From the sequence record PZ445444.1: 64,000 bases of DNA; one strand, written 5' to 3'. The notes beneath the pieces were generated by a model. It saw only the letters and a list, made by a program, of their open reading frames with translations, was not told the origin of the DNA and did no database searches. Origin of the DNA: a phage. Shown here piece after piece: positions 3,373-64,000 of the stretch. The stretch's first letter is position 1, and every line of letters starts with the position of its first letter. The position numbers were made by a program, and so were the translations under genes.

Positions 3373-3618
3373 ATGAACAAAGGGTGGACATTTGTAGACG
3401 GCGTTAAAAACATGCCTCTAGGAAAGTATATTGTAGCCATGGCAGATGAGAATGGCAAGGTGGATTTCGGAGTTTGCGAGGTTGTTCTTGCAGGATCTGG
3501 TGACTATGCTCACAAAACTGGGATAATTAACGGTCATTTCTACTTTGATTACAACCCTGTTGTGGCGTATATGGCTATGCCAGAGTTAGAGCTCCCAAAG
3601 GAGGGTGCAGATGTTTAA
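3373..3618 (+). CDS. hypothetical protein
   Basis: 81-aa ORF, AGGAG RBS. Confidence 0.55.
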   Translation: MNKGWTFVDGVKNMPLGKYIVAMADENGKVDFGVCEVVLAGSGDYAHKTGIINGHFYFDYNPVVAYMAMPELELPKEGADV

Positions 3619-3808
3619 GCTTAAATCTGCATGGAACATCGCTGTGGGGGACGAGATCCGTATCCCAGGTGGAAAGACCATTATGAAGATATCTCGTATC
3701 GAGTACGAAGGTGATCGTGTATTTCATATCTTTGCAGAGGATGGTCGAGAAATTTATATACAGGCAGGCTCTCACATCTATATTCGTAAGAAAGGGGACG
3801 ACAAATGA
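3605..3808 (+). CDS. hypothetical protein
   Basis: 67-aa ORF, AAGGAGG RBS, overlaps upstream stop. Confidence 0.5.
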   Translation: MQMFKLKSAWNIAVGDEIRIPGGKTIMKISRIEYEGDRVFHIFAEDGREIYIQAGSHIYIRKKGDDK

Positions 3809-5334: not shown

Positions 5335-5419
5335 TGGTTGACAGCTCGGACAGTTCTTGTTATTCTTATCCTCGCAAGGTGAACAACACCACACCAATTA
5401 ACAGAGAGGATAAAAAATC

Positions 5420-5617
5420 ATGAACGCCTACGGAATTAAAGTACGTCGCAACACTCGCCAGGTGGTCACCAATCAAGTGATTTGCCGGGTGGATGTAACC
5501 ATCAACAACGGGCAAGGCCTTTATAAATTTCGTCGCGGTCATAGCTATACCCTGCAACAGCTTAATCGTTGCGCCCTGACAAAAGGTCAGATCAACCACT
5601 GGTTTAATAAAAAATAA
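5420..5617 (+). CDS. hypothetical protein
   Basis: 65-aa ORF, GAGGA RBS. Confidence 0.5.
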   Translation: MNAYGIKVRRNTRQVVTNQVICRVDVTINNGQGLYKFRRGHSYTLQQLNRCALTKGQINHWFNKK

Positions 5618-5681
5618 GTATTGACATATAGTCCGACACCAAATACACTAAAAGCACAAAAGACACTAAGAGGATAAAATC

Positions 5682-6080
5682 ATGAAAACCACTACCTTTA
5701 ATTTTGATAATGCAGACTTTTCTTTTTCTGATGTCAAGAACTGCCGCCGTGATCGTGGATTTTACAAGGCTTATAATCTGGTGGGCCTGGACGATGACAA
5801 TAATTTGCACGAAGTAGCTGAGATCCGGTATTATGCCGCCGCCAGTGGTAACACTCACTACTGCGTGTTTTGGATTCACGACAACAAGAACAATAAGTAC
5901 GGTTATACTGGCGGCAAGGCGAGCGGTCACGGTTACGATAAAGCTAACGCAGCACTTGAGAGCGCATTAAATGCTATGGGGATCACTGCCGACGGCTGGA
6001 TCTACGAAGAAGAGTTTTTGTCGGCACTTGCTGACCACCTGGGCTATAAAAAGCACATTGTGACATGCGCCCACGAATAA
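5682..6080 (+). CDS. hypothetical protein
   Basis: 132-aa ORF, GAGGA RBS, promoter-like TTGACA upstream. Confidence 0.6.
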   Translation: MKTTTFNFDNADFSFSDVKNCRRDRGFYKAYNLVGLDDDNNLHEVAEIRYYAAASGNTHYCVFWIHDNKNNKYGYTGGKASGHGYDKANAALESALNAMGITADGWIYEEEFLSALADHLGYKKHIVTCAHE

Positions 6081-6163
6081 AAATCATTGACACGCTGCAA
6101 AATTTAAGTAAACTAGACACAAAAGGCGGGAATGTTTCCCGCCAGCACAAAGGAAAAAAGATC

Positions 6164-6559
6164 ATGAATAAGAACGTACGCCGCATCATGAACGAACTGG
6201 CAAACGATGAAAAAATTATTGACATGCATTTAGTCAACATTTGCCGCCGTTGTGTAACATATAACAACCGCGCCGCAAAAGCGCGTGAGATGAACGCAAA
6301 AGGCACCTTAAAGCCCTTTCAGGTGGTTGTAAAATCTATAACCAGTGCAGCAGGCCAGGCGCATGACCACAACAACGGGAGCACTAATATTGATCCGTCT
6401 TACGTAATGAAACGGATCCGGACTTGCAAGAATAAAGAGCAGGTGTATAATGTCATAGACTGGTTGGACTCTATGGGCGATGTGGTTTACAATAGGTTTT
6501 CTGCAGCTATCGAGATCCAGCTTGACAGGTTGGACGGTAAAGTACTGAAAACTTACTAA
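6164..6559 (+). CDS. hypothetical protein
   Basis: in-frame ATG with AAAGGA RBS chosen over the track start at 6065; preceded by promoter-like sequence and leader hairpin 6125-6143. Confidence 0.55.
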   Translation: MNKNVRRIMNELANDEKIIDMHLVNICRRCVTYNNRAAKAREMNAKGTLKPFQVVVKSITSAAGQAHDHNNGSTNIDPSYVMKRIRTCKNKEQVYNVIDWLDSMGDVVYNRFSAAIEIQLDRLDGKVLKTY

Positions 6560-60742: not shown

Positions 60743-60817
60743 GCCCTGTTAGCTTAGTGGATAAAGCAGCGGCCTTCTAAGCCGTTGACACTGGTTCGAG
60801 TCCAGTACGGGGTGCCA
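60743..60817 (+). tRNA. tRNA-Arg (anticodon TCT)
   Basis: hand-folded cloverleaf: 7-bp acceptor GCCCTGT/ACGGGGT, D stem GCTT/AAGC, anticodon loop CTTCTAA, T loop TTCGAGT, encoded CCA. Confidence 0.75.
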
Positions 60818-60821
60818 AATT

Positions 60822-60908
60822 GGGGAGTTATCCCGTAGAGGTAGCGGTGTAGACTGTAAATCTATTGTCATTGCGACTCGGGTGGTTCGACTCCACCACT
60901 CCCCACCA
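60822..60908 (+). tRNA. tRNA-Tyr (anticodon GTA), long variable arm
   Basis: acceptor GGGGAGT/ACTCCCC, anticodon stem-loop GTAGA-CTGTAAA-TCTAT, T arm GGTGG-TTCGACT-CCACC, CCA. Confidence 0.7.
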
Positions 60909-61022
60909 AATTTATATTTTTAGATGCATAAATAATACAGATAATGGCATTGATATTTATCGTCGTTTATACTAGTCACTAACTGCTCGAAAATCAGTGT
61001 CATTATCAGTATAATTTATAAA

Positions 61023-61113
61023 GGAGGGTAGGGAGCAATGGTGCTCAAGCGGTCTTGAAAACCGTCCCGTTGAGGATGACTCGATGATGGTTCGATTCCA
61101 TTACTCTCCGCCA
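61023..61113 (+). tRNA. tRNA-Ser (anticodon TGA), type II
   Basis: acceptor GGAGGGT/ACTCTCC, anticodon loop CTTGAAA, long variable arm, T loop TTCGATT, CCA. Confidence 0.6.
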
Positions 61114-61211
61114 CATTGTTGACCTTGTAATTAAGCGAAAGCCGGAAGCAGAACCGGATTATCAAATGTTACAGTCGTCATCGCCGACTAGCAACATGGT
61201 CAACATACTGA

Positions 61212-61310
61212 GCTAGGTAAGCCCTTTGGCAAGGGCGAGGATTTTTAATCCTGAAAATAGACGAGGTAGTCGTTGAATACATAGGTGGTTCGATTCCATC
61301 ACCTAGCACC
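61212..61310 (+). tRNA. tRNA-like gene, atypical (99 nt; anticodon loop TTTTTAA suggests TTT/Lys; ~28-nt variable region)
   Basis: acceptor GCTAGGT/ACCTAGC, D arm GCCC-TTTGGCAA-GGGC, 4-bp anticodon stem AGGA/TCCT, T arm GGTGG-TTCGATT-CCATC; CCA not fully encoded. Confidence 0.4.
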
Positions 61311-61315
61311 TTTTT

Positions 61316-61391
61316 GCTGATGTAGCACAATCGGTAGTGCAATTGATTTGTAATCAATAGGTTGTAGGTTCAAGTCCTGCCATCAGCACCA
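61316..61391 (+). tRNA. tRNA-Thr (anticodon TGT)
   Basis: acceptor GCTGATG/CATCAGC, D stem GCAC/GTGC, anticodon arm ATTGA-TTTGTAA-TCAAT, T loop TTCAAGT, CCA. Confidence 0.8.
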
Positions 61392-61392
61392 A

Positions 61393-61467
61393 GGCCCTGT
61401 AGCTGGAAGGTTCAAGCAAGCGACTCATAATCGCCAGACGGTGGTTCAATTCCACCCAGGGCCACCA
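61393..61467 (+). tRNA. tRNA-Met (anticodon CAT; initiator, elongator or Ile-lysidine type not resolved)
   Basis: acceptor GGCCCTG/CAGGGCC, anticodon loop CTCATAA, T arm GGTGG-TTCAATT-CCACC, CCA. Confidence 0.75.
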
Positions 61468-61478
61468 AATAATAAATA

Positions 61479-61555
61479 CTCCGCGTAGCTCAGCTTGGTA
61501 GAGCGCCTGATTTGGGATCAGGAGGTCGAGTGTTCGAATCACTCCGTGGAGACCA
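61479..61555 (+). tRNA. tRNA-Pro (anticodon TGG)
   Basis: acceptor CTCCGCG/CGTGGAG, D arm TAGCTCAGCTTGGTAGAGC, anticodon arm CCTGA-TTTGGGA-TCAGG, T arm GAGTG-TTCGAAT-CACTC, CCA. Confidence 0.8.
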
Positions 61556-61976: not shown

Positions 61977-62375
61977 ATGATTTCAGGTTTAACATGGCTG
62001 AGTAGGTATAGAGGGATCATAAAAGGTTTAGTTTTTGCAGCGGCTATAGGTACAGCTTATCTTGGGGCCGTGTATTGGTTTAACTCTAAGCTTAATGAAG
62101 CCTACCAAAAAGGTGTGTTAGCAACAGAGTTGAAGTGGGAACGGATCCTTGATCAGCAACAAAAGCAGGCCGACAAAATTAAAATGGGCCACGCGGAGGA
62201 GGTTAAAAACCTTGAAAAATCCCTTTCTGATCTACAGGATAAATTAAATATAGCTGAGAGGGCAGGTAGAGAAAAGCAGATTATCTACCTCCAATCACCT
62301 GAAGGTAAGAAGTCAACACTTCCTGATCAGCTTATAGATATTTATAATGAGAGTATCAATCAGGAGGATCGATGA
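61977..62375 (+). CDS. putative i-spanin (Rz-like)
   Basis: 132 aa; N-terminal TM helix then charged coiled-coil region; immediately followed by a lipoprotein ORF. Confidence 0.55.
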   Translation: MISGLTWLSRYRGIIKGLVFAAAIGTAYLGAVYWFNSKLNEAYQKGVLATELKWERILDQQQKQADKIKMGHAEEVKNLEKSLSDLQDKLNIAERAGREKQIIYLQSPEGKKSTLPDQLIDIYNESINQEDR

Positions 62376-62659
62376 GAGTTGCCACACTGTTTATTGCGTG
62401 CTTGTTATTATGTGGGTGTGCAACCAGCGTTGAGAGAGAATACAAGATTGACCCTCCGGATGTAGGAAGGTTGATTGTTAAACCCCCAGAAGGTGCCATG
62501 AAACCACCTGCTAAAGCTATGCCTTTGAAGAAAGGTGCGCCAGATGCAGTGAATTCTGGCATTATGAGGGATAATAATCTGTCTTGTAGCAATGATAGAG
62601 CTAAATTGATCATTTTGCAAGACTATATTAGAACACTGTTTCCAAAGGAGAGAGGTTAA
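62372..62659 (+). CDS. putative o-spanin (Rz1-like lipoprotein)
   Basis: 95 aa; signal peptide with Cys-containing lipobox-like LLLCGC; proline-rich mature region; overlaps upstream stop by 4 nt. Confidence 0.55.
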   Translation: MRVATLFIACLLLCGCATSVEREYKIDPPDVGRLIVKPPEGAMKPPAKAMPLKKGAPDAVNSGIMRDNNLSCSNDRAKLIILQDYIRTLFPKERG

Positions 62660-63087
62660 TGTCTAAGATTTACGGACCGTGTTCTGAAAAGCAGAAGATG
62701 ATCCTCGAAAACGATGCAGATATCTTGGTAATCGGCGGTGCCGCAGGGTCTGGCAAGTCGTTCCTCTTGCAGTTGATGCCACTTAAAATTATTGATGACC
62801 CCCACAGCTCTGTGGTTATGTTCCGAAGAACAACCCCACAGTTGGAAGGTGAGGGTGGATTATGGCCTAAAGCAGTAGCTATTTATAGTGATCTGCCTGA
62901 AAACATTAAGCCAAAGTTTAGAGAGAAGGATCATAAGTTCATTTTTCCACGGTTTGATCCGAACACTGGCAAGTGGGATAGAAGCAAAAAGGGAGCTGTT
63001 GTAAAATACTGCCACATGGAGTATGTACAAGATAAGCTTAACCATCAGGGGCTTGAGTACACCATGGTTTGCTTCGATGAGGGTTAA
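62659..63087 (+). CDS. terminase large subunit, N-terminal ATPase part (exon 1 or split-gene fragment)
   Basis: 142 aa; Walker A VIGGAAGSGKSF, ORF ends right after Walker-B-like MVCFDEG. Confidence 0.65.
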   Translation: MSKIYGPCSEKQKMILENDADILVIGGAAGSGKSFLLQLMPLKIIDDPHSSVVMFRRTTPQLEGEGGLWPKAVAIYSDLPENIKPKFREKDHKFIFPRFDPNTGKWDRSKKGAVVKYCHMEYVQDKLNHQGLEYTMVCFDEG

Positions 63088-64000
63088 TTTGTAGCTCTCG
63101 TAAAACCTCCCTAATTGCGGGGAAATCTTTATTATTGACACCACCAACCTGTCATGGTAACATGACAGAGGCTTCGAAGAGAGATCGAAGGTATGGTAAC
63201 AGTGTGTTAATTTAGATAATCCGCAGCGAAGCATCCGAGAGGATGAACGTTCAACGACTAGTCGAAAGACGTAGAATCAAGCGATTCGAAACGGGAGGGT
63301 GAATGTGTAATACTAAAAAATGTATGGATTGCCAAAGAGTTCTACCTATTGATGATTTCTTTTTATCATCTAAGAGCAAGGATGGATACTCAGGTACATG
63401 CAAGGAATGCTATATGTACTACAGGAAGGGTGGATCTCGTAAAAACAAAAATATGGTTAAGAGAGATGATGCAGCATTGTTTATTCAAGACTTGCTGAAG
63501 AAAGGTGAACTTTTTGAATGCAAATCTTGTCATGAAAGTATGCTCGCTGATAGTTTTTACACAAAACGTGACTATGGTAAAGTATATCTGGTTACGAACA
63601 GGTGTAAGATGTGTGAAAAGTTTTATCAGATTGAGAAGAAATTTCACATAACAAAAGATGAATACTATCGTCTACTCTCAGATCAAGATCATAAGTGTGC
63701 CATTTGTAGAATATCCCTTGATGAGTATAGGACGCAAGGGTATAGAGATTTCTTTTGTGTTGATCATGACCATAAAACTGGTGCTGTAAGAGGGTTGCTT
63801 TGTGATAAATGCAACAGAGCTTTAGGTTTCTTCCAAGAGGATGAGGAAACTATTCTTAGAGCGGCAGAGTATTTACACATTCATAAGATATAGTCTGGTC
63901 TGCATGGAGACATGCAGCTGCCTGAAAATGGCGGGGCAAGACTAGCGACCTTGCCCGAACATAAACGACACAATTCGAATGGGAGCAGATAGACTACCTG
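63088..64000 (+). mobile_element. probable group I intron (partial, continues past window) with an Endo VII-type nuclease ORF
   Basis: 215-nt non-coding stretch after the truncated terminase ORF, then the nuclease ORF, then further non-coding sequence to the window end. Confidence 0.45.
63303..63893 (+). CDS. Endo VII-type (HNH-like) homing endonuclease with N-terminal zinc fingers
   Basis: 196 aa, GGGAGGG RBS; CMDCQ...CKEC and CKSC zinc-finger motifs; Endo VII signature VDHDHKTGAVRGLLCDKCN. Confidence 0.7.
   Translation: MCNTKKCMDCQRVLPIDDFFLSSKSKDGYSGTCKECYMYYRKGGSRKNKNMVKRDDAALFIQDLLKKGELFECKSCHESMLADSFYTKRDYGKVYLVTNRCKMCEKFYQIEKKFHITKDEYYRLLSDQDHKCAICRISLDEYRTQGYRDFFCVDHDHKTGAVRGLLCDKCNRALGFFQEDEETILRAAEYLHIHKI

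Follow-up and report, generated by a model that had tools for sequence, protein, structure and literature searches.

How a phage obtains a complete large terminase from a gene that seems to stop halfway is the question raised by the last part of sequence record PZ445444.1, a 64,000-nucleotide (nt) stretch of phage DNA (hereafter, the window). Here, the open reading frame (ORF) of the large terminase gene (terL) ends directly behind its Walker B motif, and is followed by an ORF for an endonuclease VII (Endo VII)-type nuclease. The terL gene is essential, and phages with this arrangement are viable isolates. The original prediction, made from the sequence alone, had read the locus as a terminase interrupted by an intron that carries a homing nuclease. 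Our analysis makes it very probable that a mobile group I intron of the phage IA type, with a homing-endonuclease gene in its P8 loop, is inserted in terL right behind the Walker B codons (FDEG|TQF). Positions 62300-64000 share 99.5% identity with Escherichia phage rV5_ev168, an rV5-like coliphage of the genus Vequintavirus, and 98-99.4% identity with ~29 other Vequintavirus genomes, which enabled detailed comparison with close relatives.

The ATG-initiated ORF at 62659-63087 encodes 142 amino acids (aa) ending in ...MVCFDEG*, as had been noticed, and matches Terminase_6N (Pfam) and PHROG terminase-large-subunit families over their N-terminal halves only. By itself, this first exon covers profile positions 2-104 of 215 in Terminase_6N (25.6 bits). 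It closes with ...GAG GGT, the final base (U63084) supplying the U of the 5' splice site, and its end is identical in phages DrSchubert, V5, nomo, and JohannBauhin. The second exon had been expected beyond the window. Most of it does lie there, running ~1089 nt past the window end as judged from near-identical genomes, but its first 11 codons (TQFEWEQIDYL...) begin at 63968. The sequence behind the nuclease ORF, which had been taken as non-coding up to the window end, is therefore so only at 63894-63967, the 3' part of the intron, and 63968-64000 is coding. When exon 2 past 64000 was taken from DrSchubert (99.4% identical), the predicted spliced TerL was 515 aa long, with Terminase_6N unbroken over the junction (residues 25-294, 72 bits) and an additional match to Terminase_6C (residues 394-489, 27.9 bits). 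The spliced product would thus combine a Walker A/B ATPase domain and an RNase H-like nuclease domain in one polypeptide, as in T4-type large terminases. A sequence search of the spliced TerL against PDB gave no match, so the Walker motifs were assigned via Pfam and inspection.

Intron-less relatives support this joining of the exons. In a tblastn search with the predicted spliced protein, phages BP9, ECP2309, and "Campylobacter phage D1" were found to encode the junction uninterrupted, with 99.7-100% identity. The terL genes of BP9 and ECP2309 are uninterrupted at 1548 nt, equal to exon 1 plus exon 2, and that of JohannBauhin measures 1548+319 nt. Across the site, BP9 reads ...FDEGTQFEWEQIDYL..., and excision of 63085-63967 from the window restores the frame and yields the uninterrupted terL of the intron-less sister phages. 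The nucleotide comparison with these alleles fixes the boundaries exactly to the base, without ambiguity because the flanking bases at each boundary differ.

The interrupting sequence matches the whole group I intron model of Rfam (RF00028, Intron_gpI; model positions 1-253) at 63075-63917, with 48.5 bits (E=4.5e-11) and a 582-nt insertion in P8. A natural ORF-less allele at the identical site in phage V5 reaches 84.9 bits (E=1.7e-21). The match is far beyond chance, and the conserved catalytic core (P3-P4-P6-P7-P8-P9 and J8/7) is recognised by the covariance model, J8/7 (AAGAUA) fitting the RF00028 consensus. The intron opens with UAA (63085-63087), which is the stop codon of exon 1 on unspliced RNA, and its final base is G63967. 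P1 comprises 8 bp and sets a U.G wobble (U63084.G63094) at the 5' splice site, which places the end of exon 1 at the last base of the GGT codon. Unconstrained minimum free energy (MFE) folding of the ORF-trimmed RNA yields P1, P3, P4-P5abc, P6a, P7.1, P7.2, P8, P9, and P9.1 (Table 1). The ~215 nt after the terminase ORF that had been described as non-coding and not AT-rich are indeed free of ORFs (63088-63302), with a GC content of 44.7% as compared to 42.4% for the window as a whole. The predicted intron at the Walker B motif was thus borne out by the full-length model match, the U.G pair, the terminal G, and the identity of the excised gene to its sister terL genes. An intein at the junction was also considered; it is ruled out by the in-frame stop codon there and by the RNA structure.

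Covariation and sequence similarity bear on what kind of intron this is. In P5b, the window and V5 differ by a compensatory change (C-G to U-A), and the P8 helix is kept although the ORF-bearing and ORF-less forms build it from unrelated sequences. In an alignment of the ORF-trimmed core with the terL intron of phage LPML1 (Ounavirinae), 23 of 92 pairs are compensatory, located in P4, P5, P6a, P9, and P9.1, in a small sample of four sequences that effectively represent two lineages. The last 79 nt (J8/7, P7, P9, and the 3' tail) share 83.5% identity with the T4 td intron. Hairpins P7.1 and P7.2 between P7 and P3, as well as the td-like 3' end, are traits of subgroup IA2, yet P2 is absent. On sequence grounds, the P7.1/P7.2 pair and the td identity point to a phage IA (td-like) type.

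Table 1 Positions of features at the terL locus and of the neighbouring genes in the window
Feature	Position	Strand	Evidence or remark
terL (large terminase) exon 1, 142 codons	62659-63084	+	ORF/translation, Pfam Terminase_6N, PHROG 9526/979
terL Walker A, G27-S34	62737-62760	+	
terL Walker B, MVCFDE, residues 136-141	63064-63081	+	
terL exon 2 start, 33 nt/11 codons	63968-64000	+	Nucleotide comparison with relatives
Group I intron, 883 nt	63085-63967	+	Rfam RF00028; intron-less alleles BP9, ECP2309
P1	63079-63086 (exon/intron strand) / 63092-63099 (internal guide)	+	Rfam alignment; MFE fold of ORF-trimmed construct
Ribozyme 5' core	63106-63298	+	
P3	63106-63111/63293-63298	+	MFE, Rfam alignment
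P4	63116-63121/63221-63225	+	MFE, Rfam alignment
P5	63125-63128/63214-63217	+	P5a-c extension, hairpins 63148-63171 and 63172-63190
P6a	63232-63245	+	MFE, Rfam alignment
P7	GACUA 63256-63260 / UAGUC 63891-63895	+	Fits RF00028 consensus
P7.1	63261-63270	+	MFE
P7.2	63274-63287	+	MFE
P8 hairpin with ORF	Stem 63301-63310/63873-63882	+	Extendable to 63314/63868 with one bulge; BLAST breakpoints DrSchubert vs V5, Rfam alignments
Putative homing-endonuclease ORF, 196 aa, Endo VII motif (DHHRN / His-Me finger)	63303-63893	+	Pfam PF02945, PHROG endonuclease VII families
J8/7 and P7 3' strand, AUAAGAUAUAGUC	63883-63895	+	
P9	63900-63917	+	
P9.1 hairpins	63920-63932, 63934-63956	+	
3' tail GAACAUAAACG, end G63967	Within ribozyme 3' core 63883-63967	+	
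Sigma-70-like promoter match, TTGACA-17-TAACAT with extended -10 TG	63135-63163	+	In intron P5 extension, upstream of ORF
i-spanin/o-spanin pair	61977-62659	+	PHROG Rz-like spanins; upstream of terL
tRNA cluster: Arg(tct), Tyr(gta), Ser(tga), Thr(tgt), Met(cat), Pro(tgg)	60743-61555	+	Directly upstream of lysis/packaging genes

The ORF within the intron was correctly recognised as a zinc-finger nuclease of the Endo VII type; it matches PF02945 (Endonuclease_7) with 76.1 bits (cutoff 23.6, E=2e-21). CxxC pairs are located at residues 7/33, 73/101, 132, and 167, the first ones forming two N-terminal CxxC...CxxC modules. The catalytic module lies at the C terminus (residues 132-171 of 196) and contains the full DHHRN residue set (C132, C135, D154-H155-D156-H157, R163, C167, C170, N171). 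The Endo VII/DHHRN family has been defined on F-CphI, with the consensus CX2C...D-H-x-H...R...CX2C-N, and includes a protein of "Escherichia phage 2 JES-2013" that was classed as an intron-encoded member (Fang et al. 2018, PMC6083498). The ORF protein of the window is 100% identical to this JES2013 ORF. Among PDB entries, it matches best the restriction enzyme Hpy99I (3fc3) and T4 Endo VII (1e7d); as the phmmer alignment with the latter contains no gaps and puts DHDH 5 residues out of place, the Hpy99I alignment and direct motif positions were used instead.

The ORF and the ribozyme are mutually intertwined. The Shine-Dalgarno (SD) sequence of the ORF, GGGAGG (63293-63298), is the 3' strand of P3, the P8 stem holds the start codon on one strand and the final codons on the other, and the P7 3' strand begins with the stop codon UAG (63891-63893). 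With the ribosome binding site and start codon placed in P3 and P8, ribozyme folding and ORF translation probably compete, and the overlap of signals makes it likely that they are mutually exclusive. The sigma-70-like match in the P5 extension may be the ORF's own promoter, a weak candidate for a separate transcript; PhagePromoter predicts a promoter at the same intron position in the record of phage Gotham.

These features suggest the following course of events. The pre-mRNA would be transcribed through the intron, and on RNA that is still unspliced, translation would halt at the UAA formed by the first three intron bases. The ribozyme would fold into P1, with U63084.G63094, the P3-P9 core, P7.1, and P7.2; an external guanosine would then attack after U63084, the terminal G63967 would dock, and the exons would be ligated to GGU|ACA. 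The ligated junction would read ...GATGAGGGT|ACACAATTC..., and the mRNA would encode the complete 515-aa TerL with both its ATPase and RNase H-like nuclease domains. From the intron, the 196-aa Endo VII-motif enzyme may be produced by means of the start signals in P3/P8. In mixed infections, this enzyme would cut intron-less terL near the Walker B codons, and recombinational repair would copy the intron along with a few flanking exon bases.

To see how the element is distributed, alleles were counted in a phage collection among phages with a terL protein of at least 95% identity. The intron with the ORF is present in 29 records, the intron in any form (at least 95% identity) in ~55, leaving ~26 that are ORF-less, and the junction is uninterrupted in 66. 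Between the ORF-bearing and ORF-less forms, the whole P8 hairpin (63301-63882, 582 nt) is cleanly swapped for an 18-nt mini-hairpin (V5, JohannBauhin) of unrelated sequence. The sporadic distribution of these three allelic states among phages with >95% identical terL supports, indirectly, a mobile intron, as does the low GC content of the ORF (35.4% vs 42.4% in the window). The terL gene of phage V18, annotated as two coding sequences (CDSs), has a 9-nt duplication at the intron site (GGTTTGCTT twice) and a missing base (GAGG-CACG). It was not counted as a fourth allele type, since the duplication and frameshift are probably a sequencing or assembly error.

The exon bases next to the site differ between intron-bearing and intron-less alleles. 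All 66 empty alleles deviate from the intron-bearing flanks, the most similar ones by 3 mismatches in 60 nt. In seven empty alleles that were inspected, the flank differences are synonymous and close to the site: position -1 is C rather than T and +3 is G rather than A in all seven, and +6 is G rather than A in six. All intron-bearing alleles have GGT at the splice site and all sampled intron-less alleles GGC, so that GGC|ACG stands against GGT|ACA. The empty junction reads GGC|ACGCAG in BP9 and GAAGGC|ACGCAA in ECP2309. Within the interval -200..+250, the only differences between nomo (intron-bearing) and BP9 (empty), which have the upstream exon haplotype in common, are at -1, +3, +6, +30, and +216. 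P10 was rejected as a cause of this polymorphism, as A and G at +3/+6 both pair with U. The pattern fits homing with short co-conversion tracts and a requirement for U at -1; it would fit selection of resistant empty sites equally well.

Several observations weigh against a mobile, self-splicing intron at this site. The 48.5 bits of the ORF-bearing intron are 1.5 below the RF00028 gathering score (50). The shortfall results from the 582-nt insertion in the P8 loop, and because of it a default Rfam scan misses the intron: at gathering thresholds, a scan of the whole window returned tRNAs only, and the intron surfaces only with E-value thresholds. P2 was found neither in the Rfam alignment nor in the MFE fold, and P10, by inspection, has only 3-4 bp between the start of exon 2 (ACACAA) and 63089-63092. 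Promoter-like sites in the region number 8, as compared to 6.0±2.4 in shuffled sequences, which is not above chance. Within the subfamily Vequintavirinae, splicing has been proven by reverse transcription PCR (RT-PCR) in phage CB7 (PMC7344957), but for another intron, which lies 6 nt upstream and carries a different HNH ORF. Finally, we found no paper in the literature testing splicing or homing of the Vequintavirus element itself, which also counts in favour of an unspliced, two-part terminase.

Among the alternatives, the one that survives best is that the element is a decayed remnant, in which the intron and/or the ORF has ceased to work as a mobile element, the ORF being a relic and the intron retaining no more than its splicing. 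Introns with and without the ORF occur in similar numbers, and the absence of intron-type flanks from all intron-less alleles could mean that the remaining empty sites are resistant and that homing has stalled. The ORF, however, is intact in all 29 records that carry it, with at least 98% protein identity, and the catalytic and zinc-binding residues are all present, which makes a remnant unlikely.

We consider it very unlikely that the insertion stays in the RNA and that TerL consists of two polypeptides, the 142-aa N-terminal ATPase fragment and a C-terminal fragment, assembled post-translationally, similar to NrdA of Aeromonas phage Aeh1, which is split by mobE, or to the non-splicing case CB7_245. 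Several GenBank records do annotate two terminase CDSs (in nomo, the second begins ~72 nt into exon 2), and one HNH insertion in CB7 did not splice (PMC7344957). At the terL locus, however, where the Aeh1 nrdA/mobE type would have no ribozyme and its own downstream start, the insert is a complete group I ribozyme, and there is no start codon (ATG/GTG) or SD sequence at 63968, the first in-frame ATG lying beyond the window end. With the internal start annotated in nomo, 24 residues would be lost, among them YLMSRLRS, a stretch conserved in the terminases of CB7 and LPML1, and the ATPase domain (Terminase_6N) crosses the junction. The persistence of an ORF-less, 319-nt version at the site is also difficult to account for if it is not excised from the RNA.

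That the Endo VII-type ORF is instead a functional phage protein, either a Holliday-junction resolvase, as the name that PF02945 takes from the T4 resolvase would have it, or a packaging cofactor like the HNH proteins beside terminase genes that assist packaging (Kala et al. 2014, as cited in PMC7344957), is barely credible, since the ORF is dispensable, being carried by only 29 of ~121 Vequintavirus records with near-identical terL, lies within the loop of a ribozyme and disappears together with P8 as a single block, has its motif at the C terminus, the position found in the endonuclease clade and not in the resolvase clade, is identical to a protein placed among the intron-encoded members (PMC6083498), and has its nearest homologue (41%) again in a terL intron, this time of an unrelated phage subfamily.

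The genes upstream of the intron-bearing terL serve lysis and translation. The o-spanin (62372-62659) has a lipobox-like LLLCGC, and its final codons overlap the terL start (ATG at 62659), making the lysis and packaging genes translationally adjacent. Within the tRNA cluster, an odd 99-nt tRNA-like gene (61212-61310, plus strand) is called tRNA-??? with a four-base anticodon 'atcc' by ARAGORN, scores only 35.5 bits with the Rfam tRNA model, and is labelled 'tRNA-OTHER' in phage nomo. The gene may encode a tRNA that has degenerated or one resembling frameshift suppressors. Among the records compared, ~18-24 named Campylobacter phages (MG0656xx: A142, D1, C15, etc.) have 98-100% identity to E. 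coli rV5-like phages here, and 'Listeria phage LPML1' (OK283618) is classified in Ounavirinae (Felix O1-like); the host labels of these records look doubtful.

The terL element is not a new kind of element; it is already known, having been annotated and published in close relatives. The present analysis adds no more than the base-exact anatomy, the overlap of the ORF signals with P3, P8, and P7, the three-state survey, the invariant synonymous flank differences, and the 6-nt offset between homologous and analogous terL introns. The value of the locus is mainly practical. Automatic gene callers split the essential terL into "terminase" fragments (nomo, Gotham, and HdK5 records), and default Rfam scans overlook the intron when an ORF-laden P8 lowers its score just below the threshold. 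With intron-plus-ORF, intron-only, and empty alleles in near-identical, readily available BASEL coliphages, the locus could be a tractable natural system for addressing homing, co-conversion, and target-site immunity for the little-studied Endo VII-motif endonucleases.

The closest known systems are other Vequintavirus terminases. Introns in the terminase of rV5 (V5) have been described in a section of their own (Kropinski et al. 2013, PMC3606486; GenBank DQ832317, ORF64ABC), and its terL is entered in GenBank as a three-piece join, "ORF64ABC". V5 shares with the window the gene, the insertion site, and the intron RNA, with the 5' 216 nt and 3' 85 nt ~98-99% identical, but its intron lacks the Endo VII ORF, having the 18-nt mini-hairpin as P8. 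A second, unrelated intron of 982 nt, with an HNH ORF, interrupts terL of V5 ~315 nt further along the coding sequence (V5 record 5419-6400; Rfam 35 bits); the corresponding part lies past the window. DrSchubert, MaxBurger, and HeinrichReichert of the BASEL collection (Maffei et al. 2021, PMC8594841) and JES2013 have the same architecture at 98.5-99.4% DNA identity, without any difference of substance, and the window represents another isolate of the same allele. In the BASEL genomes, intron boundaries were annotated by comparative genomics (PMC8594841): terL of DrSchubert is a two-piece join with a "putative homing endonuclease" inside, and terL of JohannBauhin is also joined. In nomo, by comparison, the pieces are annotated as separate terminase CDSs. 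The genome announcement of phage LL12 likewise reports that terL is disrupted by an intron (PMC6658697).

Outside this gene, the window intron resembles the T4 td/I-TevI system (subgroup IA2) in being a phage group I intron with P7.1/P7.2, a stop codon right after the splice-site U, and a looped-out ORF for a homing endonuclease. The td intron differs in its host gene, thymidylate synthase, and in P2, which is not seen in the window intron. The td ORF is of the GIY-YIG type and located in P6, as opposed to P8 in the window. The ORF product shares the C-terminal motif set CX2C...DHDH...R...CX2C-N with F-CphI and its DHHRN family (PMC6083498). F-CphI, however, is free-standing beside a psbA intron and biochemically characterised, whereas the window enzyme is intron-encoded and putative, with two extra N-terminal zinc-ribbon-like modules that are Hpy99I-like. 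In the T7-like Pectobacterium phage Jarilo (record 2068-2640), an 'endonuclease VII' ORF splits the DNA polymerase gene, and the sequence behind that ORF shows 71% similarity to the 3' half of the window intron. The locus had no Rfam match at E<=0.01; by its sequence, it is apparently the same type of intron/ORF pairing in another gene.

Further terL introns or intron-like sequences occur in other phages. Av-05 (3501-3669), of the subfamily Vequintavirinae, contains sequence 74% similar to the 5' half of the window intron, from the end of an annotated 377-codon terL CDS. Pectobacterium phage CB7 (Certrevirus) belongs to the same subfamily as the window and has a group I model match at a split Walker B motif of the same gene, and splicing of its terL intron has been demonstrated by RT-PCR and sequencing (Buttimer et al. 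2020, PMC7344957). Its insertion, however, is 6 nt upstream (VD|EG vs DEG|T), with a different HNH-type ORF and a different intron sequence. Felix O1-like phages with terL-intron ORFs include EC6, JH2, and FSL SP-010 (PMC6083498). Outside Vequintavirus, the closest homologue of the window ORF comes from LPML1 (41% identity over 187 aa). It occupies the P8 loop of a terL intron of group I (57 bits), which interrupts the gene at WD|EF. As in the window, the ORF lies in P8, the SD sequence in the P3 3' strand, and the ORF end in the P8 3' strand, and many helices are kept by compensatory changes; LPML1 differs in its subfamily (Ounavirinae), in the site, 6 nt upstream, in a P2-like insert, and in having no long P5abc extension. 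Judged by these comparisons, introns have repeatedly targeted terL, above all its Walker B codons. A tentative and rather improbable reading of the sequences as a whole is that one ancient intron/endonuclease cassette, with the ORF in P8 and the SD sequence buried in P3, colonised the terminase Walker B codons of two subfamilies, entering at D|E in Felix O1-like phages and, at a distance of 6 nt from there, at DEG|T in Vequintavirus, and that the intron-less Vequintavirus alleles are cleavage-resistant escape variants and not naive targets. If this is true, an arms race would be visible within an essential catalytic motif.

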